Positions 23,359-57,763 of a DNA stretch of 64,000 nt are shown piece after piece. The stretch's first letter is position 1, and each line of letters starts with the position of its first letter. The notes beneath the pieces are model-generated. The model was not told the DNA's origin. It did not search any database and was given only the letters and a program-made list of their open reading frames with translations. Source of the DNA: an uncultured Leptospirales bacterium (GTDB taxonomy: Bacteria > Spirochaetota > UBA4802 > UBA5550); contig CAZYBU010000001.1 of assembly GCA_964645775.1 (NCBI GenBank), positions 115,639 to 179,638 of the forward strand. Reading direction: 5' to 3'. Made by a program: the position numbers and the translations under genes.

Positions 23359-23379
23359 GAAATATTACAGGAATATGCC

Positions 23380-27442: not shown

Positions 27443-27759
27443 TGAGTTCCGGAAAGAAGGGAAAGAAACCGTCTATGAAACTGGTCTTTATCATCTACAG
27501 CAACCCTGTGGATGAGGAAATCATAGAGATCCTGAGAGAAGAAGGCGCGGGTTACAGCAAGTTTGTGAACGTACTGGGAGAGGGAGACCGGGAACCTCAG
27601 CTGGGGAGCCATATCTGGCCCGGAATCAATAACTGTATTATCTCAGCCATGGACGAGACCATGGAGAAAAAAATGAGTAAGCGTATCATCTCCCTTAAGG
27701 AAAGGTACCAGGGAATCGGGATAACGGTCTTTTCAACGGGTCTTGATAGCTGGGAATAA
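27439..27759 (+). CDS. small soluble protein translationally coupled to the RND pump (possible PII/CutA-like fold, DUF3240-like)
   Basis: 106 aa, ATGA overlap with the RND stop. Beta-alpha-beta pattern (KLVFIIYSNPVDEEIIEILRE...GITVFSTG). Family assignment is an inference. Confidence 0.4.
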   Translation: MMSSGKKGKKPSMKLVFIIYSNPVDEEIIEILREEGAGYSKFVNVLGEGDREPQLGSHIWPGINNCIISAMDETMEKKMSKRIISLKERYQGIGITVFSTGLDSWE

Positions 27760-27863
27760 AAGGGTTCCAGTTTTAAGGCCTGCCTTGATCCTGGTGGGAT
27801 ACTACCTGGTATCCAACAATTCCCGGGAAGAATGGAGCGGGAACCTGCTTCGAAAGGAATGGA

Positions 27864-30974: not shown

Positions 30975-30975
30975 C

Positions 30976-32472
30976 TCAGTAGACCAGGTCCTGGTAATCA
31001 AAATTAAGATCGATAAGCTTACGTCTGATCTGGAGGATTTCGATCTTCTCCTGGGCTATCCGGTTTTCACTGTCCAGGACGTAAGTGAGATTAAGGCGGG
31101 CCATGTTGTATTTTCTGTATTCGGTCCTTAGTTTGGCTTCGAGGGCCTGAAGGTTCAGCTTCTTGTACCGCAGGCTGCGTTTGATACTTTCAGCCATCTC
31201 GCCGATGTTGGAAAGTCCCTGTTCATACTTCCTCCGGGATATCTCGTACTCATGGTTAAGCTGTTTTTTAAGTATTCTGGATTTCCTGTAGTCGGCCTTG
31301 CCTTCATGGTTGCCGATCGGATAGGTCAGCATCAGGCCGACTTCCAGGCCCACGTTTTCGCTGGATGTAAAAATCTTTCCAAAAGCGGCCCCGGCTTCGG
31401 GGTCCATTCCCTTTTTAGATACCTGGGCCATGAGGCTGAGCTGGGGCAGGGTTTTATTTCTGCCGGCTTTCTCAGCCATGTCAAGGCGCCGCATGGAATA
31501 CTGGTATATTCGCCAGTTGCCTGTTTTTTCGAAGGGGACGGGACTGAATTCCCTGGCCATGGATTTTTCTACGTACTTTTCAAAGGTAGATTCATCTGGA
31601 ATATATTTTTCCGTGTCAATGTAGGGATAGAGGTTAACATTTATTTGTTTAAAAGTCGATTTCAGGGTGTTCAACTGGTCCAGGTAGGTGTAGAGTGCCA
31701 GGTTAGATTTATTTACGTCATCCAGGTCGGCCATTCCCGAACGGTAATGACGCTGAACAGTAGCAACGATCCTTCTCGTGTTTGTAATGGTGCCTTCCAG
31801 TATTTCGATGATCCGCTGGTAAAGGATCCAATCGAAATAGAGTTTCCGGTAGTAGGTCTGAATGGATTTTCTGTACTGTTCCTGCCGGATCTTTTCAATT
31901 TCAGATTCAAACTTCGCGTCCTTTTCCGGGAAACGGTCGAGAAGTCCGAAGGAATTATAGAGGAGAGGTTGAGCCACTCCCACGTAGATTACCGGCTGGT
32001 AAAGGGTTTCATCAAAATGACCGCTCAATGAGGCGGGAGGAGACGTGTCATAATCATAGCTGGAATCCAGAATGCCGAATTTTACACCGGTCTTTAATCG
32101 TGTACCTGTTCTGGCGAAAGTCCGGGAAACACCGGTATCGACCTGAAGGCCGTGCACGCGGGAATGCGCGTTTATCTCTCCATCGATGGCAACCCCCAGG
32201 TCCCCGGAGCCGGAAAGAGACATGGAGGTATTGTCTAAAATATACTTTGTCTCCGATTCAAGGGTCCAATCCTCGATCTTTTTTTCTCTGTTGATCTTGT
32301 TTTCGGCCAGCAACTCTTCCATCTCGCTTTTCTTTAGTTCAGGAAGTTCATTTTTAAGAATCTGGCAATACTGTTCAAAGCTGATGGCTGTTTTATTTTC
32401 AGCGCTGTCCCGGGCCTCAAGGGAGAGGGGACTCACGGCAAGGATTATGAAGAGGAGGGTACACTGTTTCAT
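30976..32472 (-). CDS. TolC-like outer membrane efflux protein
   Basis: Start set at MKQCTLLFIILAVSPLSLEA (signal peptide). Two-repeat coiled-coil-rich architecture. Ends 1 nt before the RND start. Confidence 0.55.
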   Translation of the reverse strand: MKQCTLLFIILAVSPLSLEARDSAENKTAISFEQYCQILKNELPELKKSEMEELLAENKINREKKIEDWTLESETKYILDNTSMSLSGSGDLGVAIDGEINAHSRVHGLQVDTGVSRTFARTGTRLKTGVKFGILDSSYDYDTSPPASLSGHFDETLYQPVIYVGVAQPLLYNSFGLLDRFPEKDAKFESEIEKIRQEQYRKSIQTYYRKLYFDWILYQRIIEILEGTITNTRRIVATVQRHYRSGMADLDDVNKSNLALYTYLDQLNTLKSTFKQINVNLYPYIDTEKYIPDESTFEKYVEKSMAREFSPVPFEKTGNWRIYQYSMRRLDMAEKAGRNKTLPQLSLMAQVSKKGMDPEAGAAFGKIFTSSENVGLEVGLMLTYPIGNHEGKADYRKSRILKKQLNHEYEISRRKYEQGLSNIGEMAESIKRSLRYKKLNLQALEAKLRTEYRKYNMARLNLTYVLDSENRIAQEKIEILQIRRKLIDLNFDYQDLVY

Positions 32473-32629
32473 GGTCTTAGGTATCATGTTATAGGCAACC
32501 CGGGTTTGACTGTATAGGACTCGTTGCAATCTAGGCATAAGACAGGGAAAGTTCAACACATTAATCTTCTATTTAAAGTCATGTGAAAATAGCCTTGCAA
32601 AAAATGACGTTACCCTGTTCCCGTAAGCT

Positions 32630-35032: not shown

Positions 35033-36613
35033 TCAGTCAGCCTGTTTGCTGTCGGGAAGCAGACGCAGGAGGACCATGCCCGCAAGGAAGGCGGGACCGA
35101 AAATCAGGGAAAGGGACGTTCCCGCCTGGAAAAGGGCCTCCCGGCCAAGGACCAGTGTGAAGAGGCCGGTGGCTTCTCCGGGAATCATGGTGGTAAAGAG
35201 ACCACTGCCGAGATGCAGGAAGATCCAGATCCCCCAGAGGGCCAGGAGAAGGAACAGAGAAGGGTAGAGGAGTATTCTTCCCAGGGCTTGTAGTCTTCGT
35301 CTCAGGGGCGCCCGGTTCATTAAAAGGATTAATAGATACAGAAGGGAAAGTCCCAGAGGAATGTACAGGGCATAAGGTACGTACTGAAAAAGTCTCATGG
35401 CTATGACCAGTTTTTCGGCCGGTTCCCCTTTGAGATTTCTGGTTATTGTGATCTTGCCATGACGAATACTTATCCCCTGCTTTTTCATGATGTTTCGGCC
35501 TATGGCTTCGATCAGTCCCGTTTCTGAAAGACGGAAGACGGCTGTCAGCAGGTTTTTGTTCTGGATACCTTCTGTGGATCGAACCTTCTCCACGAACATA
35601 TCCGCCAGGAGATGCTTCTTTTCTCCTGAATCGCTCCTGACATTAAGGTTGATGGTAATTACTGGAAGGTTGATCTCCTTTGAGTGAAGGATGGTGTATC
35701 CTTTCCGAATCCGGACATCCTTGATGGAACCAATGCGGACCTGTCGTTCGTAGGTGGTGAGGAAAGAAAAGAGCTTTTCGAGCTCAGTGCGAATCTGGCT
35801 GGCGATGACTTTTTCTCTTAGGATATGGTTAAGGGTCGGGGTTAATATATTCAGGTCAGAGTGAAGGGATCCAAGCAGGGAAGAACTCTCTTGTTTCGCT
35901 ATACGTTCCGCCCTCTTTTCGCTCCTTTCAAGTCTCCTGCGGGCTTGATCCAGTTCATCCTTCTTTTTTTTGAGTCTCACTTTCAAAGAAGCGATATCAT
36001 CTTTCCGTTCGTTTCGGATCGTTCGAATAGACATCAGAAGATCTTCCAGTCTCTGAATTTCATTCTTTTTAAACTTCTGGAACGCTTCCTTGTCAGTATA
36101 GAGGTCTTGCATTTCGGACCACTTCAGGTCCCTGGTATCCTCAAGAGATCTCTTTGCTGTCTGGAATTCGGACTCCCTGCCCATTTCCTGGAGACGCTGA
36201 TGGATCGATTCATATTCTTCTTTTATCTGGTCATACCTCTGTTGAACTTCATCGAGGTTTACCTTCTCATCGATCTCCTGTTCGATTTTCCGGTTGGTTT
36301 TCAGGGTTGCTATCTCTACGTAGGTGCCGATAAGGTCTGCTTCGGAAAGAGTTTTTGTATAGAAATCGGGTGATAATAAAAGATTGAGAAAAATGGCTAA
36401 GACCACTGTGACGGGTATAAAGAAAAAGGCCAGAATATTGGATAGATGAAAAAATATTGACGGTCTGCCTTCAGGTGAACGTGACATGGCTGCCTCCAGT
36501 TTCTCTGAAGGAAAATAATCCGGTTGAAGTATTTCAAGCTTTTTTTCAAATGCTCGTAAACCATGTACAGCGGGTAATAATACTTTCCTGAAGATGATTT
36601 TACGTGTAAGCAA
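35033..36613 (-). CDS. membrane protein with long coiled-coil region, unknown function
   Basis: 526 aa. N-terminal TM, about 200 aa of charged heptad-like sequence (EEYESIHQRLQE..., KKKKDELDQARRRLERSEKRAERIAKQE), C-terminal multi-TM segment. Confidence 0.5.
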   Translation of the reverse strand: MLTRKIIFRKVLLPAVHGLRAFEKKLEILQPDYFPSEKLEAAMSRSPEGRPSIFFHLSNILAFFFIPVTVVLAIFLNLLLSPDFYTKTLSEADLIGTYVEIATLKTNRKIEQEIDEKVNLDEVQQRYDQIKEEYESIHQRLQEMGRESEFQTAKRSLEDTRDLKWSEMQDLYTDKEAFQKFKKNEIQRLEDLLMSIRTIRNERKDDIASLKVRLKKKKDELDQARRRLERSEKRAERIAKQESSSLLGSLHSDLNILTPTLNHILREKVIASQIRTELEKLFSFLTTYERQVRIGSIKDVRIRKGYTILHSKEINLPVITINLNVRSDSGEKKHLLADMFVEKVRSTEGIQNKNLLTAVFRLSETGLIEAIGRNIMKKQGISIRHGKITITRNLKGEPAEKLVIAMRLFQYVPYALYIPLGLSLLYLLILLMNRAPLRRRLQALGRILLYPSLFLLLALWGIWIFLHLGSGLFTTMIPGEATGLFTLVLGREALFQAGTSLSLIFGPAFLAGMVLLRLLPDSKQAD

Positions 36614-36714
36614 ACCCCGCCCCCTTCGGCGGCAGGGATGTTAGAGTTTTTTCATTGCAAATAAATCTAAGGGATAAATACGTATATATTAGAAATATGG
36701 AGAGGTAATCGTTT

Positions 36715-37152
36715 ATGCTTTTTCTGGCTTTTATTCTGATTTACGGCTTGCTTATTGCCGCTGTCTACATCGGAGGTGCTTCGTTTGTCGTCATTTTCGA
36801 CGCGCCTACCTTTGCCATTGTTTTACTGCCGGGGCTGCTTCTAATGCTTTTCGGCAGGAAGTGGAAAGCATTCGTTAACGGGCTTCAGGTGATGTGGAAT
36901 CCCGAGGAAACCCTTTCCGGAGACAAACGTCGGGAAGCGAAGGTCTGTTTTGATATGCTCTATAAGGTCACCATGATAGCCGGTTTTACTGGGACACTTA
37001 TCGGTCTGGCTATCCTTATGTCCTCGGCCCCGGATAGTACCAGTTTTCTTAAGGGTTTTTCCGTCGCAATTCTGAGCAGTATCCACGGATTAATTTTCGC
37101 CTTTTTCCTTTATTACCCGGCACTTATAATTATTGAAAGAGGTAAGGACTGA
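36715..37152 (+). CDS. small membrane protein (3-4 TM)
   Basis: 145-aa hydrophobic ORF. RBS GAGAGGTAA upstream. Faint resemblance to MotA/TolQ-type TM hairpins. Confidence 0.45.
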   Translation: MLFLAFILIYGLLIAAVYIGGASFVVIFDAPTFAIVLLPGLLLMLFGRKWKAFVNGLQVMWNPEETLSGDKRREAKVCFDMLYKVTMIAGFTGTLIGLAILMSSAPDSTSFLKGFSVAILSSIHGLIFAFFLYYPALIIIERGKD

Positions 37153-37158
37153 TTTAAC

Positions 37159-38478
37159 TTATTCTACTGTAAAAAACTCTTCCTTGAATTCCGGTTTGTC
37201 TCTGTACTTTTGCATCATGAAGCCAAGGCCCGGTTCAATGTTCTGAAATATGGCGGGGTTCACATCGATCCCCGCTTTTAGCAGGGCTTCCGCCGCCTTT
37301 TCCGGGTCAGGAGGACAACCGGGTATCTCTATGGTTTCCTTGATTACAGGATTGTCTTTGTGTTTACTGCACATGCACTGTCCCAGTAAAACCGTTTTGT
37401 TGTTCCCGGGTTCCGGTTCCATGATTTTGCCTGTCAGTATTTCCACGTTATCCCAGGGTTCACCTTTCCATGCTGCCATTATGGCAGTGATTATGGCGCC
37501 GTTTACGATTGAGCAGTAGGTACAGAGTGTGCTGTCAAACTTTCTGTAGGTAAGACCCTGGATTCCCATCTTCTCCATTTTTCGGTGCAGCTTTTCATCA
37601 TCTGTATAGGGGAAGTCGTACTCATGGTAAGAGGATAATGAATCAATAGATTCTCCCATAATCTCAATGTCAGAAAGGTCGGCAGGTCTGCCCGCTTTCT
37701 TTGCCGCCAGTGCGATATGTGGTACGATTGAAGGTTCATGTCCAAGAATCTTTGCGCCGACCATGTCTGCTGTGAGGATATCATTTGAGGCGATAACTAT
37801 CTCCGATCTCCTGGCTTTGCCGTCCAGGGCCGGGCCTTTTTCCAGAGTGTAGATACCATCTATAACAGAAACGATAGGTGGAAAAATTCCCGGAAGGCTT
37901 GAAATCCAGTAATCCAGAGGATAGTCCATGTCTTCTGAATGGCATTTTTTCCGCGAGGCAATGTTTAAGAGTCCTTTTAAATTTTTCATGGAAAGGCTGA
38001 CCATTGCCTGGGCGTGTGTTTTCAAGACAGGAACATCTACAATCACGTCCGATTCCCGGGCATCTTTGCTTACCCAGAGATTCAGCCTTTCATCTACCTT
38101 AACCCTGTCAAAAGGGCGATCAAAGATGTTTAGTATCTCTACTCCGAATCGTTCACGTATCTTGTTATATCCCAGACTTTCAAAGGCATGTCGTGGTGTC
38201 TCCAGGTCTCCTTCCTTAAATGTGATGATGCCCTCACCGATAACTATCGAGCCAACTTTCAGATCTGATAAATATGAAACGATCTCTTCAATTACCCTGG
38301 ATGTGGTAATTACTCCCCATTTAGGGAAAGTTGCTTTCATGGTCCATAGAACAATATTAGGTTTAACAAAAACCCTGTCCCCGGCTTTTATGGAGTTGAA
38401 AGCACCTGAAAGTTCTATCGCTTTCTTGATGCTTTCATTGTTTTCCGAATATTGAGTAATAGCAGCTTTGTATGACAT
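37159..38478 (-). CDS. DUF362-like protein with C-terminal Cys-rich region
   Basis: 439 aa. N-terminus ...DRVFVKPNIV... is typical of DUF362. C-terminal CTYCS...CMCSKH...PGCPP cysteines. Confidence 0.6.
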   Translation of the reverse strand: MSYKAAITQYSENNESIKKAIELSGAFNSIKAGDRVFVKPNIVLWTMKATFPKWGVITTSRVIEEIVSYLSDLKVGSIVIGEGIITFKEGDLETPRHAFESLGYNKIRERFGVEILNIFDRPFDRVKVDERLNLWVSKDARESDVIVDVPVLKTHAQAMVSLSMKNLKGLLNIASRKKCHSEDMDYPLDYWISSLPGIFPPIVSVIDGIYTLEKGPALDGKARRSEIVIASNDILTADMVGAKILGHEPSIVPHIALAAKKAGRPADLSDIEIMGESIDSLSSYHEYDFPYTDDEKLHRKMEKMGIQGLTYRKFDSTLCTYCSIVNGAIITAIMAAWKGEPWDNVEILTGKIMEPEPGNNKTVLLGQCMCSKHKDNPVIKETIEIPGCPPDPEKAAEALLKAGIDVNPAIFQNIEPGLGFMMQKYRDKPEFKEEFFTVE

Positions 38479-38590
38479 GACTTCCTCCTGTAATAGGGCA
38501 ATGTAACATTCGGTTTTCTCAAGATCAACAGGTAAAATGTGATATAGCCTGATTCAGTTTGATCAGAATTCTGAAAATTGATACAATTAG

Positions 38591-38603
38591 ACCGATAACT
38601 ATC
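38591..38603 (-). repeat. GATAGTTATCGGT motif copy 1 (20 nt upstream of DinB-like gene)
   Basis: Plus-strand accgataactatc. One of four intergenic copies within 2.7 kb. Confidence 0.6.
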
Positions 38604-38622
38604 TATCTCAAAGGATGAGAAT

Positions 38623-39111
38623 ATGGAATATGATCAGGCTCTTCGAGAGCATCTTCTTGTTAATCTTGATAATAGTCAGGCTCATGTGGAATTTGACCAG
38701 GTAATACGAGATTTTCCATTTGAATTAAGTGGAAAAGTAATCGAATCTGTACATCACAGTGCCTGGGATTTAATGTACCATTTGTGGGTTTGCCAGCATG
38801 ATATTATTGAATATGTCCATGATCCACAAAATCATGTTTCTCCTTTATATCCTTCAGGGTTGTGGCCGGATTCCCATGTCCCTGTTTCTGAGGATTTGTG
38901 GAATAAAACTATCTCAGGATATCATAAAGATATGGAATTATTTCGAGAAACAATTAAGTCACCCGATGTGGACCTTTTGGCTCTTTTGCCTCATACAGAA
39001 GGACATACCTTGATGAGGGAAGCGCTTATTATCGGGCGTCATGCGAGTTATCATATAGCGCAACTGGTTGATCTTCGAATGCTACTGGGGATCCCGGTCA
39101 GGGACTGGTAG
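38623..39111 (+). CDS. DinB/YfiT-like four-helix-bundle protein
   Basis: 162 aa. His-containing helices (HHSAWDLMYHLWVCQHD, ASYHIAQLVDLR). Low-GC gene. Confidence 0.55.
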   Translation: MEYDQALREHLLVNLDNSQAHVEFDQVIRDFPFELSGKVIESVHHSAWDLMYHLWVCQHDIIEYVHDPQNHVSPLYPSGLWPDSHVPVSEDLWNKTISGYHKDMELFRETIKSPDVDLLALLPHTEGHTLMREALIIGRHASYHIAQLVDLRMLLGIPVRDW

Positions 39112-39126
39112 AAACGATTCAGATTA

Positions 39127-39570
39127 TTACGGGATGGAATCTGGCATTCCCCAGATTATTTTCCAATACATCCCACCTTGTTTCGTTTCACCGTTAATGA
39201 TTGCATAGCAGGACCCTGGATGGTTATCATTACCTTTTGTTTGATTAATGATTTTCTGGACAAGTCTTTCCAATAATAATTCAATTGCCTCTGCCAGAAA
39301 CAGGGAAACCGATTGTTTTAACACTTTCCTGACATCCAGTAGTAGCTCATAGTCATTTTCGCTCAAATCCAAATGAAACCTGATCCAGTTCGAATCCTTT
39401 CTTCTTGGTTGGTATCTGATTCTGGAGAATGAATAGGATTTTCTAACAAGGGGTACCGATTCCCGAATTAAAAGGCTAATTATCTGTTTTAGATTTAAAC
39501 CTGTCCGGGCAGCAGCCTGATCAATAATCCTGCGATTTTCCCTCAGCAAACAAACAGTTGTTTCAATCAT
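39127..39570 (-). CDS. small putative DNA-binding protein (RHH/HTH-like N-terminus)
   Basis: 147 aa. N-terminal RRIIDQAAARTGLNLKQIISLLIRES resembles a ribbon-helix-helix or HTH motif. Low GC. Confidence 0.4.
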   Translation of the reverse strand: MIETTVCLLRENRRIIDQAAARTGLNLKQIISLLIRESVPLVRKSYSFSRIRYQPRRKDSNWIRFHLDLSENDYELLLDVRKVLKQSVSLFLAEAIELLLERLVQKIINQTKGNDNHPGSCYAIINGETKQGGMYWKIIWGMPDSIP

Positions 39571-39589
39571 TGATTTCTCCTTAACTGTT

Positions 39590-39612
39590 TTTTATATGGT
39601 ACACGTCAAAAT
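39590..39612 (-). promoter_or_regulatory. conserved 23-nt upstream element, copy 2 (20 nt upstream of the 147-aa gene)
   Basis: ttttatatggtacacgtcaaaat. 20/23 identical to 15680-15702 with the same spacing to a minus-strand start codon. Confidence 0.4.
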
Positions 39613-39633
39613 TAAGAAATGTGAAAAAAATCT

Positions 39634-39665
39634 GGATAGTTATCGGTTCCACCGGTAACTAACGG
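39634..39665 (+). repeat. GATAGTTATCGGT motif copy 2, here as a near-palindromic double site
   Basis: ggatagttatcggttccaccggtaactaacgg contains GTTATCGGT-TCC-ACCGGTAAC, an inverted repeat with one mismatch. Confidence 0.6.
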
Positions 39666-39707
39666 TTTTCCTTTGCATATGGAGGTAAAGATAGCCATCC
39701 TGCGCCG

Positions 39708-40010
39708 GTGGTTACACATGTAATGGATGGAATTATTCGTATTTTTGGAAGGGCGATGAAAAATTTTCGACTAGGGAGGGATAAACGAAAAGAGGTTCTG
39801 AAAAGACTTTATCGGACGGTTCTGGCCACTGAAATTACTCGGAACCCGAAGGCGGAATTTTCCGCATTTGTTCGAAATGAACCCCCAACAGCTGCACTTT
39901 ATGGTGGTCGCACAGTTTTTGATGATTCACAAAGGATAAGCAACTTACTTTATTTGACCGATAACTATCCTAACATAATATTCATATGCACTCTTTTTGA
40001 AAAAGGTTGA
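39708..40010 (+). CDS. hypothetical small protein (doubtful)
   Basis: 100-aa ORF in the low-GC islet. Contains motif copy 3 near its 3' end. No motif support. Confidence 0.25.
   Translation: MVTHVMDGIIRIFGRAMKNFRLGRDKRKEVLKRLYRTVLATEITRNPKAEFSAFVRNEPPTAALYGGRTVFDDSQRISNLLYLTDNYPNIIFICTLFEKG
39957..39970 (-). repeat. GATAGTTATCGGT motif copy 3
   Basis: Plus-strand accgataactatcc, about 70 nt upstream of the lipid-kinase gene. Confidence 0.55.
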
Positions 40011-46821: not shown

Positions 46822-49800
46822 ATGAATTATATCAATGTCAGTCACAGCCGCAGATACAGCGGAACGATTAGCGGTAGATCAAGTGAAATCCAAGATAGAT
46901 TTCCCGCCTCAAACATCCTTGAAGAGGATGGATTCTGGTCCACCCAGGTCCGGGAATCACCGATCTCCGAATATGTCATAATTGATTATGGAGAGGATGT
47001 GTTCATCGATTATGTAGAGATACATCCTGTAACCGAACAGCCTTCTGGTTTCCCTTCGTATTTCCATTTGGAGTGCAGTGATGACACTTCCGTCTGGAGG
47101 ATACTGCTCACCGAGAAAGAGTATAATACCGATGGGACCCCATACCGAGTAGATCTGCCCCTTACGCGTACGAGGTACGTTAAATTTGCAGCACCTCGTT
47201 CATGTGAAATGGAAAAAAAATTTCAGATCCGGGTAGCCCGTATCGAGGCCGGAATCTCCGGAATACTGGAACTGGATGCCACGAGCAGCGAGCAGGAACA
47301 TGATGTTAAGAACCTCCTTTCCGATAACAACCGGGAGACGTGGCTTTCAAGTCCAAAAAGCAATCCCTCACGGGAGACTCTGAACATAGACCTGGGAGAC
47401 GTTTACGGAGTAAACCGGATTATCCTGGAATCATCCCTGAAGGGTTTCCCCGCCAATATCACCATCGAAACAAGCGCGGGTGAAGATGTCTGGACAATTC
47501 TCCATGATGAGAAAGGATTCCTGGCTGAATCTTTCAAAAAGTATTACTGGGAAGAGGGTGTTATCCAGGCCCGTTTTATCCGCGTGGAAATGTCCACTAC
47601 GCCCTTCTTCGAGAACCGGCATCAGGTTCAGCTCGCCTCCCTCGAGATCTGTGCCGCTCACCTGGAAGAAAACCATTCACATAATATTGGAGAGCTTACA
47701 ACGCACGCTTCAGTCTTTATGCCAGGAATGGTAAGACTCGCTCGTGATGGTGAAGAAACAATGGGGACAGCCGTTCAGGCCAATGACCGTCGTCTTAGGG
47801 ACGCTACGGAACTTTTCAAGGGGATTGTTCGTTTCGCTGAAGAAGGCGAGTCTGAACCGCTCGTAGCTCTCCAGTCGTCAGATCCGAGGGTACAGCCGGC
47901 CACAGGGGAACAATACGGCATAGTGCGTCTGGCTTTTGACAGGGAGACCAAACCGGGTAGTGTGATCCAGGGAAGTGATTCGCGGCTTCAGCACGCTACA
48001 CCGGATAATTTTGGTATTGTCCGAATTTGTCCCAATGGCGAATACATGGAAAGTGGAGTCATTACCGGTAATGACTGCCGTCTTCAGAAGGCAACGACAG
48101 ACGAGCCAGGAATAAGCCGTATTGCCAAAAATGGAGAGTCTTCCCATGATGCCGTTGTTAGCTCCACGGACAGAAGACTTTCTCACGCGGGGACCACATC
48201 TTATGGAATTGTTATACTTGCGGGAGACGGGGAGGAGAACGAGGGAAAGGTTATTCAGGCTAATGATCGTCGATTAAAAGATGCAACAACCCTGGCGCCC
48301 GGTATTGTTGAGCTTGCGGAGGACGGGGAGGAGAGCCCGGGAACCGTTGTTCAGGGTAATGACCGCCGTCTTCGGGACGCCACCACGGAATCAAAGGGGA
48401 TCGTTGAGCTTGCGGAGGACGGGGAGGAGAAGAACGGAACCGCTGTCCAGGGTAATGACCGCCGTCTTCGGAACGCCACCACGGAATCAAAGGGGATTGT
48501 GGAACTGGCAGAGAACGGAGAGAAGAATCCGGGGGTTGCCGTTCAGGGTAACGATCGCCGGCTGGAAGATGCTACCATAATTTCTACCGGCATTGTTCGT
48601 CTGGCTTCGGATGGAGAAGAGGCTGAAGGTTCCGCTGTTCAGGGCAATGACCGTCGACTTCGGGAGGCAACGACAATTTCTACCGGCATTGTTCGTCTGG
48701 CTTCGGATGGAGAAGAGGCTGAAGGTTCCGCTGTTCAGGGCAATGACCGTCGTCTTCGGGACGCTACCACGGAATCGAAGGGCATTGTAGAGCTGGCCGG
48801 GGATGGGGAGGATAAGCCGGGTACCGCTGTACAGGGTAACGACCATCGTCTCAAGGAAGCGACGACAGTCTCTACAGGTATTGTTCGTCTGGCCCTGAAC
48901 GGTGAGGAGACGGAAGGGGCGGCTGTTCAGGGTAACGACAGTCGTCTTCGGGACGCCACCACGGAATCGAAGGGCATTGTAGAGCTGGCCGGGGATGGAG
49001 AGGATAAACCGGGTACCGCTGTCCAGGGCAGCGATCGTCGTCTCCGTGACTCCAGCACGACATCAAAAGGTATAGTAGAGCTGGCGGAGGATGGGGAAAG
49101 CGTCCCTGGAGTCGTTGTTCAGGGTAATGATTCCAGACTACGGATAGGAACAGAAGAATATCCCGGGATTCTGCGTGTCGCTCCTGCCGGGGTCTCCCGG
49201 GAAGGACTTGTGGTGCAATCCAATGATCCACGGCTTGTGGACTCGAGAGAACCCCTTCCCCATGAACATGAGTACGCTCCTCTGCATCATCGACTGGAAG
49301 ATCATGAGGGTATCCTGGCGGTGGATGACAGCAGGGCCATGAAATTTATGGATGTTAATCCTCCTTTGTCCGATTCATCCGTGATTTACGGTAAAAACAA
49401 ATCGGAGGGAACGGGAGCTATCGGTATAACCGGAACGGTTCGTCCCGGGAATGGCAAGAAATCTACCGCTTACGGGGTAGTGGGCGATAGTTTGCATATC
49501 GGGGTCCGCGGACAGGCAACAGGAGATTCCGATTCCCGGGGATGCGGAGTGGCCGGCCTCGCCAGGAGTGGTCATGGAGGAGCTTTCCTGAGCGAGCATG
49601 GGTATTCACTCATGGTCGATGGATATGGCCGGGAAACAAACAGTCTGGATGAAACAATTAATCTTAAAGGGGATGGGAAAGCCCTTTATGTGGATGGTGC
49701 GTCATTTTTTAAAGGTCAGGCTACTTTTCAGTTCAGCAGGGATGAAGCGACCGGAAACCTGGTAGAGTTCTTTGAGGTGGATGACGAAGAGTATATTTCC

Positions 49801-50154
49801 CCTGGTGATATCCTGGTTGTAAGCGACCGGGGAAAATCGATGCTGTCGAAATCACGTATCACATATAACCGGTCTGTTATAGGAGTTGTTTCTGACACTC
49901 CGGCTGTTATTCTTAATGGTGCACCTGAGGGGAAGGTATATGCCGTTGCCCTCGCCGGTAAGGTGATGTGTAAAGTGGATGCCCGGAACAAACCCATACG
50001 GCCTGGAGATTTCATTGTCACATCGGACACTCCCGGCTGCGGGATGAGCGGAAAAATCGATTCTTTTGATAAAATAGGCACTGTCCTGGGCAAGGCCCTG
50101 GATGGGCTGGAGGAGGGGCTGGGGACCATCCCTCTTTTTATTCAGCCTATGTAA
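46822..50154 (+). CDS. giant repeat protein with 2x discoidin (F5/8 type C)-like domains, 16 tandem 32-aa repeats and a unique C-terminal domain
   Basis: 1110 aa. No signal peptide. The region from aa 30 to about 290 shows two galactose-binding-like modules. 16 x G[IV]V[ER]LAxDGE...VQGNDRRLRDAT repeats. 300-aa Gly-rich C-terminal domain. Confidence 0.8.
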   Translation: MNYINVSHSRRYSGTISGRSSEIQDRFPASNILEEDGFWSTQVRESPISEYVIIDYGEDVFIDYVEIHPVTEQPSGFPSYFHLECSDDTSVWRILLTEKEYNTDGTPYRVDLPLTRTRYVKFAAPRSCEMEKKFQIRVARIEAGISGILELDATSSEQEHDVKNLLSDNNRETWLSSPKSNPSRETLNIDLGDVYGVNRIILESSLKGFPANITIETSAGEDVWTILHDEKGFLAESFKKYYWEEGVIQARFIRVEMSTTPFFENRHQVQLASLEICAAHLEENHSHNIGELTTHASVFMPGMVRLARDGEETMGTAVQANDRRLRDATELFKGIVRFAEEGESEPLVALQSSDPRVQPATGEQYGIVRLAFDRETKPGSVIQGSDSRLQHATPDNFGIVRICPNGEYMESGVITGNDCRLQKATTDEPGISRIAKNGESSHDAVVSSTDRRLSHAGTTSYGIVILAGDGEENEGKVIQANDRRLKDATTLAPGIVELAEDGEESPGTVVQGNDRRLRDATTESKGIVELAEDGEEKNGTAVQGNDRRLRNATTESKGIVELAENGEKNPGVAVQGNDRRLEDATIISTGIVRLASDGEEAEGSAVQGNDRRLREATTISTGIVRLASDGEEAEGSAVQGNDRRLRDATTESKGIVELAGDGEDKPGTAVQGNDHRLKEATTVSTGIVRLALNGEETEGAAVQGNDSRLRDATTESKGIVELAGDGEDKPGTAVQGSDRRLRDSSTTSKGIVELAEDGESVPGVVVQGNDSRLRIGTEEYPGILRVAPAGVSREGLVVQSNDPRLVDSREPLPHEHEYAPLHHRLEDHEGILAVDDSRAMKFMDVNPPLSDSSVIYGKNKSEGTGAIGITGTVRPGNGKKSTAYGVVGDSLHIGVRGQATGDSDSRGCGVAGLARSGHGGAFLSEHGYSLMVDGYGRETNSLDETINLKGDGKALYVDGASFFKGQATFQFSRDEATGNLVEFFEVDDEEYISPGDILVVSDRGKSMLSKSRITYNRSVIGVVSDTPAVILNGAPEGKVYAVALAGKVMCKVDARNKPIRPGDFIVTSDTPGCGMSGKIDSFDKIGTVLGKALDGLEEGLGTIPLFIQPM
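47725..49260 (+). repeat. in-frame tandem array of 16 x 96-bp units
   Basis: Exact period of 96 nt. Units 10/11 (48589-48780) and 12/14 are nearly identical at the nucleotide level. Confidence 0.85.
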
Positions 50155-52371: not shown

Positions 52372-53451
52372 TTATCCGTCTATTCCGGTCATGCTGAATG
52401 AATACATGAGAAACCTGCGCGTGTTGGATGAACTCTCAAATGTCTCAGAAGTTTCATTTATTCTCCCTGACATAAGGTGAAGGGTATCTTTCGAAAGTTC
52501 CCTGAGGTTTCGCTGAAGGGTTTCGAAAAACGCTGGGGGCAGAAAATCGAGTACCTTCATGAAATCGTTACAGAGGGAATGACTTTCAAGGAGAGTGTCC
52601 AGCCAGGATGGAGCAAGTGAGAAAATAATTTTCTCAATGGATGAATAAAACAATTCATCTGAGTTCGAGTTTATTCGATTATAGATTCCAGCAGTTTTGA
52701 GAAACCATCTGAGAACCATTTCCTTCCGCAACTGGCGCGTTTCATGCTCCAGCAGTAGCAGAGAAAAAAGGGCCTGGTAGCTGTTTGATGGAAGAGGATT
52801 CTTTTCCAGGGCGGAAAGAGAGAAAGAATTGGCATAATCGATCAGTTCGCAGAAAAGAAGGTCCTGGTTTTTTTTACAGATTATGCTTCTGCCTGCCAGG
52901 ATGAGGCCGGCGCAGGCAATGACTTTGAGGTCGGGATAGTAGTTTCCCCGCGTTACATTGTGGAAAAATGGAAGGGTCTCTTCATGGATCGGAGAGTAGA
53001 GCAGAACTTTCATGAAAAGGGAATTTCCGTCCCGCTCCACATTTTCGATCAGGGTCTCCGTAAAGTTCCATAAACCGAGTTCACGTATTATTGAAGTGTC
53101 ATCAACCAGGATTTGGTCCATCTTCAGCATCTCAACGTATTTATCCCTGTCCGTGTAATACAATGAATAGTGGTAAAGCCTGTTAAAGAGGTCGCGGTAC
53201 ACGTAGTGGCGGATCGGGTCGTCAGGGTCATCCCGCTGAGATGTCTCAAATACGATCTGGTCCAGGATATGTAGAAAACCCAGGTCGATAAGGCATGAAG
53301 ATGAAACATCCCTGTTCTCTTCCACTGTGCGGGAAAGGAGGAAAGAGAGTTGCATGAGTCCCTCCCGGTGACTTCCGTTCTTTTCAAGCCTCTTTCTGCA
53401 AATCGAGGCGATTTCTTTACATCTGTCATGAAGCTGATTTCGATTATTCAT
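52372..53451 (-). CDS. hypothetical all-alpha protein
   Basis: 359-aa ORF with no recognisable motif. Convergent with dtd. Confidence 0.45.
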   Translation of the reverse strand: MNNRNQLHDRCKEIASICRKRLEKNGSHREGLMQLSFLLSRTVEENRDVSSSCLIDLGFLHILDQIVFETSQRDDPDDPIRHYVYRDLFNRLYHYSLYYTDRDKYVEMLKMDQILVDDTSIIRELGLWNFTETLIENVERDGNSLFMKVLLYSPIHEETLPFFHNVTRGNYYPDLKVIACAGLILAGRSIICKKNQDLLFCELIDYANSFSLSALEKNPLPSNSYQALFSLLLLEHETRQLRKEMVLRWFLKTAGIYNRINSNSDELFYSSIEKIIFSLAPSWLDTLLESHSLCNDFMKVLDFLPPAFFETLQRNLRELSKDTLHLMSGRINETSETFESSSNTRRFLMYSFSMTGIDG

Positions 53452-53536
53452 ACTCTTTCCCCTGTTTCAAATCAATTGGGGTGGGACCGCTGTCGAGTTT
53501 TTTTTCCAAAAAAGTGTAATCGGACGTGTACCATGT

Positions 53537-54547
53537 ATGAAGGAGATTCAGTCAATACTGATCGGCGCGGTCCTGCTCCTGGTACTTTTTCAGGCGGAAT
53601 CCCATGGTGCACTTGTTATAAGTGAATTCACCACATCCGCTTCCTCTGATTGGGTCGAGGTCCAGCTTCGGGGAGAGGAGGCAATGGATATATCCCCGCT
53701 TCTGGTTACCATGTATTACGGATCCAACGAATCCCTGGCAGATGAGCCGGTCACCCTGAGAGGAAGTGACCTTCCGGATACACCCTGGAATGACCGGTAT
53801 GCGGTGATACATTTCACCGATGTCGGAGAGGATGAGACCGATTCAGCGGGAGATATTAACGGTAACGGGATCAGGGACATCTATTGTCAGAACTATTCCG
53901 GGACCCTCTGGAATACGGATGGAATCGTTGCGATAGATTCGGACGATGATCCTGAGAATGGCGGCATCCTGGATATGGTAGCGTACAGTCACCATGACGG
54001 CGGTTATCACTCAACGATTTTGGGATACATCGAGGCTGGTATTGATCAGGGTCAGTGGATGCCGGACCGCGAGGGTGGACCGGGTTGTTTTGACATCGGA
54101 GAAAATGGACTTAAGTCCCACATGTCCGTTTCAAGGAAGGAGGGAGAGGACAGCAACAGCGCCGATGATTTTCAGGTGACCCCCTACCAGACCCCGGGCC
54201 GGCCGAATATCTTTCCATCAAAAAAGAATAGGTTTCCCCTGATCCAGCTTTCCGGAACCGGAAAGAAAATACTCCTGGGCGGTTCCAGTAAAAATGACAG
54301 GGCGAATATCCGTCTTCTTGTTCACGAGAACTGTCGTGTCTCTTTTCAGGTCTTCTCTGTCTCCGGATTGTCGGTATCCTCCAGGCAGGTGCTGGAAGAG
54401 TGTTATCCCGGCATCCACGAGATCTCATGGAAACCACCGGCACGGCTTGTCACCGGTCTTTACCTGGGTCTAATCGAGGCAACTTCCAGGGGGAGTGGCC
54501 GCTACAGCAGGATGGTGATCTATTTGATCATCTCCAGGGGGCGCTGA
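53537..54547 (+). CDS. secreted lamin-tail-domain (LTD)-like protein with T9SS/FlgD-Ig-like C-terminal domain
   Basis: Signal peptide. LTD-like start ALVISEFTTSASSDWVEVQL. C-terminal beta-sandwich ...RVSFQVFSVSGLSVSSRQVL...GLYLGLIEA...RMVIYLI resembles por-secretion CTD. Confidence 0.5.
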   Translation: MKEIQSILIGAVLLLVLFQAESHGALVISEFTTSASSDWVEVQLRGEEAMDISPLLVTMYYGSNESLADEPVTLRGSDLPDTPWNDRYAVIHFTDVGEDETDSAGDINGNGIRDIYCQNYSGTLWNTDGIVAIDSDDDPENGGILDMVAYSHHDGGYHSTILGYIEAGIDQGQWMPDREGGPGCFDIGENGLKSHMSVSRKEGEDSNSADDFQVTPYQTPGRPNIFPSKKNRFPLIQLSGTGKKILLGGSSKNDRANIRLLVHENCRVSFQVFSVSGLSVSSRQVLEECYPGIHEISWKPPARLVTGLYLGLIEATSRGSGRYSRMVIYLIISRGR

Positions 54548-55806
54548 TGAATGTAATCGTGATCATTGCCCTTTCAGCCCATCTTGCGCAGGCCTTCTCC
54601 TATGGTACGGTTTCCGCGGAATCTCCCTACCCCTTTGCCAGGGCCCGGGAGCTGGCCCACGGCATGATGGTAACGGACAATCCCGCCCGGCTAAATGGGA
54701 GGCGGGGACTCTGGTTAACGGGTTCGGCCACCCGTCCCTATTCCCTTCCGGAACTGGGAGCCACGGTTACCGGCGCCGGTTACACTTCTGAAAACTGGTC
54801 CACTTCCCTGGGCTGGACCCATTTTGGTCTTGAAGGATACAGGGAGCATTCTCTGGGGCTTACTCTTGCCTGGCGCCCTTTTCCTCTGCTCAGGATAGGG
54901 GTCCGCGGGACCTGGTATCACCTTGATATGGACATCGACTCCCATACGATGAATGGAGGGGACCTGGATCTGGGGATTGAGGTGGTTCCCCTGGAGTGGC
55001 TGGTTCTATCGGGGAGAGTAAGCAATCTGCTTTCCCTGACCCGAAGGGGCGGCGAGAACTGGATACCGGGCGAATGGTCCGTGGGGGCCTCAGTCCATCC
55101 CTTCCGGGGCAGTGCTATCTCCTGGAACGGGAGCGAAACGATCTACGGATTCATTAACAGTCTGGAGGTCCGCCTCGATATTCTGCGTGAGTTATCCATT
55201 GCCGCGGGATACGCACGTGAAACGGAGACCTTTACAGCGTCCGCGACCCTTATGCTTCCCTTCCTGGCTGTTTCCTATGGGACATCCTACCATACGAGCC
55301 TGGGCTACACACATCTCTTTTCCATGGAACTGAGCCAAAAACGAAGCAGTGTGGAACCTCTAATTCATGGAAGAAGAGAAAAAAGGAAGAGTAAAGATCC
55401 GAAACCGAATATTCAAAAGGCGAACGCGGAAGTTCTTGGCCGGGTAAGAGGCATATCGCCTGAGCTGGCGGAGCGGATCGTTATCTACAGGGAGAGCATC
55501 GGTCCTGTAACGGAGAAGGCCCTGGTGCAGCTCGGTCTAACGGAAGGAGAACTCAGGGATCTCAGGAATCGCATCACTGGACTGGAAAAGACAAAATCAG
55601 ACTGGAGAAAAAAGAAATTCCAGAAACGTAAAGGAAGGAGGATTCTTGCGGCCGATCTCTTTAACCGGCTCGTGGGGGCCGGAGTACAACCGGCCGATGC
55701 CCTTAAAGTTGTCCGCGCCATGCCAGGAGGAGATGTTCGGGTTATTCTTGAATCTTACCCTGATGCTGTGCGTGAAGAGGCGGTACGGCTGTGTGGCGGT
55801 GGTTAG
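54547..55806 (+). CDS. putative outer-membrane beta-barrel protein with C-terminal ComEA-like helix-hairpin-helix DNA-binding module
   Basis: Start at MNVIVIIALSAHLAQA (TGATG overlap with the upstream stop). About 280 aa of amphipathic beta-strands. ...ANAEVLGRVRGISPELAERIVIYRESIGP... matches the ComEA HhH. Confidence 0.5.
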   Translation: MNVIVIIALSAHLAQAFSYGTVSAESPYPFARARELAHGMMVTDNPARLNGRRGLWLTGSATRPYSLPELGATVTGAGYTSENWSTSLGWTHFGLEGYREHSLGLTLAWRPFPLLRIGVRGTWYHLDMDIDSHTMNGGDLDLGIEVVPLEWLVLSGRVSNLLSLTRRGGENWIPGEWSVGASVHPFRGSAISWNGSETIYGFINSLEVRLDILRELSIAAGYARETETFTASATLMLPFLAVSYGTSYHTSLGYTHLFSMELSQKRSSVEPLIHGRREKRKSKDPKPNIQKANAEVLGRVRGISPELAERIVIYRESIGPVTEKALVQLGLTEGELRDLRNRITGLEKTKSDWRKKKFQKRKGRRILAADLFNRLVGAGVQPADALKVVRAMPGGDVRVILESYPDAVREEAVRLCGGG

Positions 55807-57338
55807 TTCTCTGGACTCTGGTTGTCCTCCTCTTCCCCATAAAGGCCTGGGCAGACAGGAAAGAGGATTTCCGTCTCTCTCTCTATGGAGGATATACCAT
55901 GGAAAGAGAGGAGGAGAGCCCCGTTCTTGTCATGGGAGGCAGAAGTCGTTACAGTGACGGAAGGGGGCTCCAGGCCTCCCTGGCTTTAAAGCACTATCCC
56001 GGGGAGAGGACTTCTTCCACCTCTACGCTGTTGCTTGAACGTGAAAGGGGAGGCATCGCCGCAGGTAATTACCATCTCCATATAGGGACCGGGCTCTATG
56101 TGGGAAAACGTTCTTTTTATGTGTCATCACCCTACGATTTGATGCCGGCAGTTAGCCGTGAGATGAAACTCAAGGCCGACACCTCCGGTACAGGTGATTA
56201 TTCTCTGCGTGGAGCCGCTCTCTACTTCAACCCCGGAAAGAATGTTCGGATCGGAGCCTGGTATTCCAATCGGTTACGGTACGCGGATTTGACCGAAAGA
56301 CGAATAGAAACTACCCTGGAGACCCTGGACGGTTACCCTTACCCACAGGGGGATCGGAGGGATTCCGTAGTCCGTCATGACCAGGGTATATTTATTTCAT
56401 TCACCGGCAAACATGTATGCCTGGAGTCAACCTTCTCCGTCATGGCACTGGAGAACGACCGTCGCATCCTTACCTGGGGATACAGTGAGATTGACGGAGG
56501 ACCCTGGTCAAAGGACCTCCAGGCGGGAGGCAGCCTCTACGGACGGATAGCCTGGCCCGGGTTCGTTCTTTTCGGGGAAGTGGCCCACAGTCATATCCGG
56601 GGACAGTATGGAAAGAAGAAAACAACAGGGAGAGGCGGTAACGCCATGAGAGCCGGGATAGTCGGAGGAAGTAAAAAAATTTCACTTTCCCTGCTTCTTC
56701 ACAGGGAGGAACCCGATTACCTGGCGCCCCTGTCTGATGGAATTTCCGTCAGAAACAGATGGGAACTGCGGTTTAGACTGAGACCCCTGAAATGGTATTC
56801 TCTGACCCTGCTTGCCGAAACAAAAAGGACCCGTTCACGGGAGGCAGGAGAGCCTGAACCTGCCCGGGCATCGGCGGGGATGACATTTCGATGGAAAAAA
56901 ATGGAGGCTAAAGTTTCCGGTCGTATCGTCTACGGTGGAGTGGAGCCCCTCTCCTGGCAGGTTAAATCCAGCTTCCTCGGGAGAATCGGGAAGAGATGGT
57001 CCCTGGAGGGACGGTCTCTCTACCAGCGTCAGGGAAGCGCCGCCGGGGGAAGCGCTGAGGCTCTCTGTGCCTGGCATCCCCTTACGGTATTATCCCTGGA
57101 TGGCCGCTACCGCTTCCGTTTTGTTAAAGAGGGAAAAGGAGTTTATCTGGGAAGCTACTCAGTGGACCCCTCTCTTTTCCCCCTTGTGTACCGTAACAGG
57201 ACAGGCCATGAGGCTTCAGTGAGAGTATTGTTGAAACAAAAGAATCTGAGATTGGCCCTGAAAGGGGGAATGTCCTTTCTTGCCGACAGGATATCAGAGG
57301 CCCGCATGGATTTCGCGGCTGGATTAAAATTTCCCTGA
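55791..57338 (+). CDS. putative outer-membrane beta-barrel protein
   Basis: 515 aa. Signal peptide MWRWLVLWTLVVLLFPIKAWA. Alternating hydrophobic beta-pattern. C-terminal ...AAGLKFP. Confidence 0.45.
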   Translation: MWRWLVLWTLVVLLFPIKAWADRKEDFRLSLYGGYTMEREEESPVLVMGGRSRYSDGRGLQASLALKHYPGERTSSTSTLLLERERGGIAAGNYHLHIGTGLYVGKRSFYVSSPYDLMPAVSREMKLKADTSGTGDYSLRGAALYFNPGKNVRIGAWYSNRLRYADLTERRIETTLETLDGYPYPQGDRRDSVVRHDQGIFISFTGKHVCLESTFSVMALENDRRILTWGYSEIDGGPWSKDLQAGGSLYGRIAWPGFVLFGEVAHSHIRGQYGKKKTTGRGGNAMRAGIVGGSKKISLSLLLHREEPDYLAPLSDGISVRNRWELRFRLRPLKWYSLTLLAETKRTRSREAGEPEPARASAGMTFRWKKMEAKVSGRIVYGGVEPLSWQVKSSFLGRIGKRWSLEGRSLYQRQGSAAGGSAEALCAWHPLTVLSLDGRYRFRFVKEGKGVYLGSYSVDPSLFPLVYRNRTGHEASVRVLLKQKNLRLALKGGMSFLADRISEARMDFAAGLKFP

Positions 57339-57380
57339 AGGCTTGACGATACTGTACCGTTTTTGTATATTGATCTTCCA

Positions 57381-57735
57381 GGGGACGATCCGGTTTCGAC
57401 TGCAATGATGGATCGTCAGCTGCATGTCGAGCGCGCTGTCATCTCGTAAAAAATGGCAGGCAAAAGATAACTGCAAACGATAATTTTGCACTGGCTGCTT
57501 AAATAGCGGCCACGGAAGCCGGTTGGCTGCTCCTCTGAGTCGCCGGATTTCCGTCATAATCCAGAGGATAGCCGGATGCCCCGCCGTCAGGCTGAAGGCG
57601 AATCTTTAAGGCGGCTTGAGGATGATTACGGTGTCCTGTCCCGGTATCATCCTCGAGATTTAACGACAGGAATAAGCATGTAGACGCTGGCGGAACGTAT
57701 TGCAGGACGCGGGTTCGACTCCCGCCGTCTCCACA
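57381..57735 (+). ncRNA. ssrA: tmRNA (transfer-messenger RNA)
   Basis: 5' GGGGACGATCCGGTTTCGAC... 3' tRNA-like end GGACGCGGGTTCGACTCCCGCCGTCTCCA. Internal tag reading frame GCAAACGATAATTTTGCACTGGCTGCTTAA encodes ANDNFALAA*. Confidence 0.9.
57473..57502 (+). other. tmRNA tag-peptide coding segment (ANDNFALAA, stop TAA)
   Basis: Resume codon GCA at 57473, TAA at 57500-57502. Tag resembles the E. coli ANDENYALAA degradation tag. Confidence 0.8.
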
Positions 57736-57740
57736 TCAGG

Positions 57741-57763
57741 CCCGGTTAAGCCGGGTCTTTTAT
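57741..57763 (+). terminator. intrinsic terminator of ssrA
   Basis: CCCGG-TTAAG-CCGGG hairpin followed by TCTTTTAT. Confidence 0.65.

Follow-up and report, generated by a model that had tools for sequence, protein, structure and literature searches.

An unsolved question is how DNA crosses the outer membrane (OM) of diderm bacteria without a competence pilus and secretin, for example in Bacteroidota such as Riemerella and possibly in spirochetes. In competent Gram-negatives, soluble ComEA drives uptake by binding retention. Here we describe a three-gene operon (genes 1, 2, and 3, together referred to as the trio) of an uncultured Leptospirales bacterium, in which gene 2 is predicted to join an OM barrel covalently to a ComEA-type, presumably DNA-binding, helix-hairpin-helix (HhH) module. 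The trio lies in a 64,000-nucleotide (nt) stretch of DNA, referred to as the window (GenBank assembly GCA_964645775.1, contig CAZYBU010000001.1, positions 115,639 to 179,638 of the forward strand).

The closest described counterpart of the HhH module is ComEA itself, which has the same type of double HhH (~65 amino acids, aa) and the same predicted compartment, the periplasm. In gene 2, however, the HhH is attached to the C-terminus of an OM barrel, whereas ComEA is soluble, SLBB-linked, or anchored in the inner membrane by an N-terminal helix. Gene 2 further differs from ComEA in that its hairpin glycines are partly lost, it scores below the cutoffs of the ComEA models, and it has no comEC/comF context. 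The closest counterparts of the barrel are PorV/PorQ, which act as shuttle and anchor in the type IX secretion system (T9SS), and FadL/TodX (OMPP1 family). Their barrels are 345-445 aa in length compared to ~250 aa in gene 2, and they lack its periplasmic HhH tail. Unlike PorV/PorQ, gene 2 occurs in a phylum that is not known for the T9SS, and it has no match to the family hidden Markov models (HMMs).

Two further systems resemble the trio by description. In the spirochete Treponema pallidum, the FadL-like proteins TP0548, TP0859, and TP0865 have been proposed to hand over substrates to periplasmic or inner membrane partners (PMC8407342). Like gene 2, they are described as 14-stranded FadL-like barrels with a hatch and a presumably periplasmic alpha-helical C-terminus, but they carry tetratricopeptide repeat (TPR) extensions instead of HhH, and partners similar to genes 1 and 3 have not been described (PMC8407342). 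In Riemerella anatipestifer, a diderm without the classical pilus/secretin route, pilus-independent DNA uptake across the OM requires the HhH protein RA0C_RS02645, as well as RA0C_RS04915/04920, an OM barrel and a surface protein respectively (PMC8459023). The trio is similar in combining an HhH protein, an OM barrel, and a putative surface protein, and a split form of the gene 2/gene 3 system likewise occurs in Bacteroidota-type loci (see below). The details differ: the HhH of RA0C_RS02645 is at aa 236-301, compared to aa 41-92 in the corresponding Bacteroidota-type protein, and RA0C_RS04915 is a CarboxypepD_reg/TonB-dependent-like barrel that, by description, is not similar to gene 3. Each domain of the trio is of a known kind. 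In the literature searched, we found no description of the fusion of barrel and ComEA, of its obligate partners, or of its split forms, in agreement with the initial annotation of the window, which did not recognize the arrangement from described competence systems.

Gene 2 Encodes a Predicted Outer Membrane Barrel Fused to a ComEA-Type Module

An AlphaFold2 (AF2) model of gene 2, based on a multiple sequence alignment (MSA) of 89 sequences, has a mean pLDDT of 92.2 and a pTM of 0.73. It consists of a signal peptide, an unstructured segment (aa 17-52), 14 strands (aa 54-263), and the HhH domain (aa 294-340); past the HhH, a long helix (aa 350-377) leads into a small helical domain (aa 382-417) (features and their coordinates are listed in Table 1). 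The modeled barrel is structurally close to solved members of the FadL/TodX-PorV/PorQ group, with FadL and TodX among the top structural matches. An NPA motif is conserved in the segment before strand 1, where N, P, and A are kept in 72, 82, and 69% of the 89 family sequences respectively. In the model, aa 17-265 are a 14-stranded FadL/TodX-PorV/PorQ-type barrel with an NPA hatch, which bears out the initial annotation of the N-terminal part of gene 2 as a membrane barrel.

At the level of sequence profiles, curated FadL/PorV HMMs (Toluene_X and PorV in Pfam, and PorV_fam in NCBIfam) have no match in gene 2 or in 66 of its full-length relatives. Relatives that consist of the barrel only match PorV_fam in 18 of 20 cases (best E-value 9.5e-23; P0131 scores 50.7 bits against a 90-bit cutoff), and match Toluene_X and PorV of Pfam at E ~0.01.

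The second half of the fusion is recognized by both profile and structure databases. Pfam HHH_3 (PF12836) matches aa 288-323 of gene 2 at 29.6 bits, above its gathering score of 27, so that the HhH assigned to gene 2 in the initial annotation passed the profile check. A profile of the gene 2 family matches solved ComEA chains in the PDB (8dss at 1.2e-15, 8dfk at 1.1e-13, and 2duy of Thermus at 1.1e-7), in an alignment that spans the full double HhH, with 8dss being its best single-domain match (59.6 bits); it also matches the tandem HhH of EEPD1 (3.9e-26). The AF2 barrel and the HHH_3 match together agree with the earlier proposal of an OM barrel tethered to a ComEA-type module.

In the FadL/PorV family, the number of barrel strands is even and both termini are in the periplasm. 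Because the gene 2 barrel has 14 strands and the topology of its family puts both termini in the periplasm, the HhH tail would be periplasmic, in disagreement with the extracellular DNA binding that was initially suggested for it. The HhH is followed by a Lys/Arg-rich helix, whose net charge is +10 in the window protein, against a median of +5 across the family. The small helical domain at the C-terminus shows a marginal, non-significant similarity (E ~0.04) to the HhH of RuvA. Within this domain, Cys416 (55792-55794) is conserved in 89% of the family, and a Cys is present at position 292 (55420-55422) in 61%, which is Ala in the window protein. It is possible that in the family a Cys292-Cys416 disulfide connects the C-terminal end with the beginning of the HhH, and such a disulfide would fit a periplasmic location.

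Table 1. Coordinates of the trio, its domains and motifs, and adjoining features in the window.
Feature	Positions	Strand	Description and basis
Gene 1	53537-54547	+	336-aa secreted protein; open reading frame (ORF); dN/dS; at least 65 homologs at ~40% identity
Gene 1, LTD-like N-domain (aa 25-155)	53609-54001	+	conserved motifs
Gene 1, CTD-like C-terminal domain (aa 231-336)	54227-54544	+	basic, pI ~10; beta-sandwich-like; weak matches
Gene 2	54547-55806	+	419-aa OM barrel-HhH fusion; ORF, Pfam, AF2, homologs, dN/dS
Gene 2, N-terminal hatch segment (aa 17-52)	54595-54702	+	precedes strand 1 (aa 54), outside the strands in the AF2 model
Gene 2, NPA motif (aa 45-47)	54679-54687	+	before strand 1
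Gene 2, predicted 14-stranded FadL/PorV-type beta-barrel (aa 53-265)	54703-55341	+	
Gene 2, ComEA-type HhH domain (aa 286-347)	55402-55587	+	Pfam HHH_3; profile against PDB
Gene 2, Lys/Arg-rich helix (aa 348-369)	55588-55653	+	model helix aa 350-377; charge
Gene 2, small C-terminal helical domain (aa 370-419)	55654-55803	+	model helices aa 382-417
Gene 3	55791-57338	+	515-aa probable large OM beta-barrel; ORF; dN/dS; at least 62 homologs
Gene 3, conserved motif GNYxxHxGxGLxVG (aa 92-105)	56064-56105	+	
Gene 3, C-terminal beta-signal RMDFAAGLKFP	57303-57335	+	
Intergenic region	53452-53536	.	between divergent orf359 (-) and gene 1; presumed operon promoter region
tmRNA (ssrA)	57381-57734	+	43 nt past gene 3; tag peptide ANDNFALAA

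The Trio Is a Conserved Operon of Uncultured Leptospirales

The trio is a translationally coupled three-gene operon. Genes 1 and 2 meet in a TGATG junction, where the stop codon TGA (54545-54547) and the start codon ATG (54547-54549) share one A, and gene 2 overlaps gene 3 by 16 nt, from the GTG start of gene 3 at 55791 to the TAG stop of gene 2 at 55804-55806. These were read directly in the sequence, and the gene coordinates and both overlaps are as initially annotated. A consensus scan of the intergenic region upstream of gene 1 revealed a single promoter-like site, which is on the minus strand (53470-53443), and identified no plus-strand promoter for the trio in that region. Compared to the homologs in a related locus on a metagenome contig (L002), which are 76-86% identical, the ratios of nonsynonymous to synonymous substitution rates (dN/dS) are 0.14, 0.09, and 0.13 for genes 1, 2, and 3 respectively. 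By these ratios the three genes are under purifying selection, and are therefore expressed, constrained genes rather than chance ORFs.

Scanning a gene 1 alignment against one genome per GTDB species identified 75 loci, and all but three of them carry taxon labels, which are of metagenome-assembled genomes of Spirochaetota/Spirochaetes, many being "uncultured Leptospirales" or "Leptospiraceae". ORF and HMM analysis of 76 non-redundant loci detected gene 1 in all 76, gene 2 in 74, and gene 3 in 68. Neither gene order nor strand varies among them, and genes 2 and 3 overlap by a median of 19 nt. The missing members are mostly explained by contig ends; two loci, L048 and L058, have no detectable gene 3 despite sufficient downstream sequence. 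The more divergent loci (L005/L006, L009, L013, L014, and L015) have the same trio with abutting or overlapping genes, while their flanks otherwise differ. Synteny in relatives, which the initial annotation had made a test of the cluster, is therefore kept in at least 68 loci from dozens of species. Judging from sequence comparison, the trio is a conserved, unannotated operon of an uncultured Leptospirales clade.

The gene 2 family was found only by exhaustive search. A word-indexed homology search found no match to gene 2 beyond its own genome, and for gene 3 only itself and one homolog at 76%, even with a profile; a search of genome contigs with the single gene 2 protein had no match either. 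By exhaustive search of a representative library, gene 2 has 199 relatives at E<=1e-3, about 85 of which are full length (413-445 aa) with 24-38% identity.

Gene 3 Probably Encodes a Large Outer Membrane Barrel

Gene 3 homologs are highly divergent, with ~17% identity to the window protein among 62 sequences. The window protein has a signal peptide (aa 1-21), as do the sampled N-termini of its homologs, and only 3 of the 62 contain a hydrophobic stretch resembling a transmembrane helix past residue 35. The protein ends in a canonical outer membrane protein (OMP) beta-signal, and the features of this signal are kept across the family: 48 of 62 sequences terminate in F, position -8 is E in 55 of 62, and the frequencies of hydrophobic residues at positions -1, -3, -5, -7, and -9 are 0.97, 0.69, 0.69, 0.81, and 0.84 respectively. 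With both a signal peptide and a C-terminal beta-signal, gene 3 has the hallmarks of an OMP that depends on the beta-barrel assembly machinery (BAM).

A scan for beta-amphipathic segments, which picks up 13 of the 14 strands known in gene 2, finds ~23 such segments in gene 3; as it also scores the soluble gene 1, this indicates beta content only. Crude single-sequence metrics of beta/alpha propensity had no discrimination. Gene 3 has no match in Pfam and no known family, and profiles of 7 and 62 of its sequences found nothing meaningful among PDB sequences, matches to dTor designed repeats being rejected as compositional, and alignment of gene 3 to the gene 2 family with hhalign gave a probability of only 27%. 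Taken together, these features suggest that gene 3 is probably a large OM barrel, so that the second barrel proposed in the initial annotation was supported in its signal peptide, beta periodicity, and beta-signal, and not by a structural model (see below).

Gene 1 Is a Secreted Protein with an Acidic LTD-Like Domain and a Basic CTD-Like Tail

Gene 1, which has a signal peptide at aa 1-24, is well conserved (~40% identity among 65 sequences). Its N-domain is characterized by the motifs INEF..DWVE, DIS.LYVTMYYG.NE, and WNTD..VAID.DDDP..GG.ID.V.YS, and by an insert, DETDxxGDxNxNG (also DETDxTGDTNxNG), that resembles a calcium-binding loop. The domain had been annotated as a lamin-tail domain (LTD), but this was not sustained by the Pfam model LTD (PF00932, gathering score 34.3 bits), which does not match gene 1 of the window and matches 4 of 65 homologs with a best E-value of 0.058. 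Gene 1 profiles built from 4, 7, and 65 sequences found nothing meaningful among PDB sequences. A precomputed weak match of the L002 homolog to PF26342 (TP_1001_2nd) was not reproduced with a local copy of Pfam and was discarded; on TP1001, nothing was found in the literature searched.

A T9SS-type C-terminal domain (CTD) with FlgD-Ig-like features had also been annotated in gene 1, and all matches that would support it are below the cutoffs; no profile of type A (TIGR04183/PF18962) or type B (CHU_C, PF13585) sorting domains is matched above its cutoff. Among 65 homologs, sub-threshold matches were found to the NCBIfam model of the CTD region of T9SS-dependent M6-like proteins (7 homologs, best 0.0011), to TIGR04183 (4, best 0.0029), to the PorU model (2), to Pfam CHU_C (PF13585; 5, best 2e-4), and to FlgD_ig (2). 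The best match of the gene 1 C-terminus among PDB sequences (E 0.22) is a 75-aa chain named "Endonuclease I" (8glk_D). We take 8glk to be a substrate-bound T9SS complex with chain D as the CTD of the cargo, a lead rather than a test. All of the weak matches of the gene 1 C-terminus involve T9SS sorting domains or proteins that carry them. T9SS-type CTDs are natural ligands of PorV-type barrels. As the next gene encodes a PorV-like barrel, the CTD-like matches suggest that genes 1 and 2 are a CTD-barrel docking pair, in which gene 1 would dock to the gene 2 barrel via its basic CTD-like tail.

Fused and Split Forms in Other Loci

Related gene pairs in two Bacteroidota-type loci and in a third locus have the same components in different combinations. 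In the Bacteroidota-type locus L012 (4949-8669), a divergent DUF4835 gene is followed by a gene encoding a 265-aa barrel-only protein and another encoding a 636-aa protein, with HHH_3 at the N-terminus of the latter (aa 41-92). In the second Bacteroidota-type locus, L091 (5108-9025), a divergent DUF4835 gene precedes two genes, one for a barrel-HhH protein of 357 aa and one for an HhH protein of 647 aa. In locus L010 (7001-9552), a barrel-HhH protein of 355 aa lacks the C-terminal helical domain, and its gene overlaps by 4 nt with the following gene, which encodes a 495-aa protein. Gene 1 was seen only in the Spirochaetota loci and is absent from the Bacteroidota-type and L010-type loci.

The larger proteins of these pairs are related to gene 3. 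The 636-aa and 647-aa proteins are homologs of one another (4e-33), and a gene 3 HMM of 62 sequences matches them colinearly at 33.9 and 22 bits respectively. The 495-aa protein of L010 matches the C-terminal parts of both (1e-7 to 1e-8), and only its own C-terminal part is similar to gene 3. A ComEC gene is present 3 kb downstream of the pair in L012, and in no other locus. A D-Tyr-tRNA deacylase gene is found near the L012 pair, and also near the trio in the window.

These split and fused forms indicate that the conserved core consists of a PorV-like barrel, an HhH, and a gene 3-type module. The HhH may be fused to the C-terminus of the small barrel, to the N-terminus of the gene 3-like protein, or to both, and on standard OMP topology both attachment points are periplasmic. 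Because the HhH migrates between adjacent genes, the barrel, the HhH, and the gene 3 module likely act together, and we infer that they constitute one functional unit.

A Putative Pilus-Independent DNA Uptake Device and Alternative Functions

We tentatively favor a role of the trio as a DNA capture or uptake device that needs no pilus, which we regard as a good possibility rather than a probability. The trio would build a complex across the OM, in which the HhH and the basic helix are suspended on the inner side of the membrane next to the large gene 3 barrel, the latter serving as the conduit. Double-stranded DNA or another nucleic acid coming in through this barrel would be bound just inside the OM by the tethered ComEA-like module, and retention by binding could drive uptake in the manner of a ComEA-type ratchet, with no type IV pilus or secretin. 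The imported DNA might be used for nutrition or for transformation.

Although it is the HhH domain alone that suggests binding or uptake of DNA, this function is favored by several observations, including the barrel-HhH architecture, the ComEA-type HhH and the basic helix next to it, the OMP features of gene 3, the obligate linkage of these genes amid unrelated neighborhoods, the shuffling of their domains, the presence of ComEC near the L012 pair, and the precedent of Riemerella anatipestifer.

A number of observations weigh against such a role. The ComEA-specific models TIGR00426 and TIGR01259 score gene 2 at 18.2 and 15.2 bits, below their cutoffs of 53.1 and 152 respectively, and also remain below cutoff in the 32 and 37 of 66 relatives that they match (best 4.9e-06 and 3.8e-07 respectively). 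In the G-h-G of hairpin 1, 49% of the family retain the first Gly and 17% the second; hairpin 2 retains its first Gly in 98%, with mostly Ser/Thr in place of the second. The HhH domain is near neutral, with a family median isoelectric point (pI) of 5.8, unlike typical basic DNA binders, and the PDB matches of the gene 2 family profile include PsbU. PsbU is an HHH_3 protein that is not known as a DNA binder. The periplasmic orientation of the HhH is taken from family topology, and an AF2 run of gene 3 with a two-sequence MSA gave an unusable model (pLDDT 26.6), from which neither fold nor pore size could be read. No competence or DNA-processing genes, such as comEC, dprA, comF, pilQ, or pilus genes, were found in the window or in the conserved flanks of the 76 loci, so that the check for comEC/pilQ proposed in the initial annotation was negative within this range. 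Further, gene 1 has an extremely acidic LTD-like domain, with a pI of 4.1 and a net charge of -19 to -23 across 65 homologs. Together with its failure to match the LTD profile, this makes the domain a poor candidate for contact with DNA at the surface, with which the initial annotation had associated LTDs. Overall, the proposal of an extracellular DNA binding or uptake apparatus kept its barrel-ComEA tether, its synteny, and its HhH profile, and was not supported in the extracellular placement of the HhH or in the LTD and its contact with DNA.

The alternative that we rank next is a module for surface anchoring, in which a calcium-binding gene 1 protein is held on the gene 2 barrel by its CTD-like tail, gene 3 is the translocon or a partner, and the HhH and basic tail serve as a tether to a protein or to the envelope. 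Such pairs are known from the T9SS, where PorU and PorZ sit on PorV and PorQ, and cargo with a type-B CTD pairs with an adjacent PorP/SprF gene. We consider this alternative unlikely, though still credible. The CTD matches of gene 1 on which it would build are all sub-threshold, none of the T9SS genes SprA, PorK/L/M/N, and PorU was seen in the window and the 5-kb flanks, and to our knowledge the T9SS is not known in Spirochaetota. Moreover, the Bacteroidota-type and L010-type loci always retain the HhH and lack gene 1, which points to a core without the cargo, and surface anchoring leaves the HhH as such without a role.

The gene 2 barrel may otherwise be a FadL-type channel for hydrophobic or other small molecules, whose helical extension hands the substrate to periplasmic or inner membrane partners, with the HhH as an adaptor. 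The ranking of FadL and TodX among the structural matches and the conservation of the FadL-family NPA hatch motif are consistent with such a channel, and in a spirochete, bipartite proteins with a FadL-like barrel and a periplasmic helical domain at the C-terminus have already been described (PMC8407342). However, the extension in gene 2 is a ComEA-type HHH_3 with a Lys/Arg-rich helix rather than TPR, the barrel is small (~250 aa) with short loops, and the FadL model of Pfam has no match to it. The obligate presence of gene 3 and the fusion of HhH to a gene 3-like protein would also be left unexplained, which makes this function improbable. A BamG-like accessory role in OM biogenesis, or that of a structural OM tether, is very improbable, since the likeness to BamG is that of the shared 14-strand fold, no bamA or bamD is found nearby (in the window or among the neighbors of the 76 loci), and membership of gene 2 in the BamG family was rejected, with a single match of NCBIfam BamG among 66 family members (E 0.0028) and another among 20 barrel-only relatives.

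Returning to DNA uptake, a ComEA-type domain on an OM barrel that is always paired with a probable second, large barrel is a concrete candidate for the step by which DNA crosses the OM. In a broader version, the barrel, the HhH, and the gene 3 barrel would be a hitherto unrecognized DNA importer, free of pilus and secretin, that occurs, fused or split, in both Bacteroidota and uncultured Leptospirales, with the spirochete version capped by a CTD-anchored gene 1. As a whole we regard this version as rather unlikely; if it were true, gene 1 would be part of a T9SS-style CTD-PorV docking pair outside the T9SS phyla. Even if DNA is not what is taken up or bound, the trio would represent an OMP complex, conserved but without annotation, in a large clade of uncultured Leptospirales, as well as a case of PorV/PorQ-type barrels, possibly with CTD-type docking, outside the phyla that are known for the T9SS.

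Genomic Neighborhood

The tmRNA gene ssrA, which the initial annotation had placed at the trio, does adjoin its 3' end, but this adjacency is incidental and limited to the close relatives L002-L004, while other loci differ downstream. The gene has its own promoter-like site (TTGACG-17-TATATT, 57343-57371) straight after the stop codon of gene 3, as well as an intrinsic terminator at 57738-57758. A functional link between ssrA and the trio was therefore rejected.

The only recurrent neighbor of the trio is a homolog (~366 aa) of orf359, which is present in 27-29 of the 76 loci. In the window, orf359 (52372-53451, minus strand) is divergent from gene 1 and encodes a 359-aa protein without a family match, which possibly acts as a regulator or cytoplasmic partner of the trio. 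Further upstream, a gene at 46822-50154 (plus strand) encodes a protein of 1110 aa that contains two F5/8 type C (discoidin) domains, ~14 tandem repeats of ~32 aa (GIVELAEDGE..VQGNDRRLRDATT), and a weak match to Peptidase_G2/intramolecular chaperones at its C-terminus. A conserved gene of this kind precedes the trio in L002 and L005, and does so in 13 of the 76 loci.

Elsewhere in the window, two resistance-nodulation-division (RND) efflux clusters are arranged back to back at 21248-32559, with the gene orders TetR-OEP-HlyD-AcrB on the plus strand and AcrB-OEP on the minus strand. A 526-aa ORF without a family match (35033-36613, minus strand) lies at the edge of a region (36000-40000) that has a GC content of 0.40-0.44, compared to ~0.50-0.54 in the rest of the window, and that may be acquired DNA.

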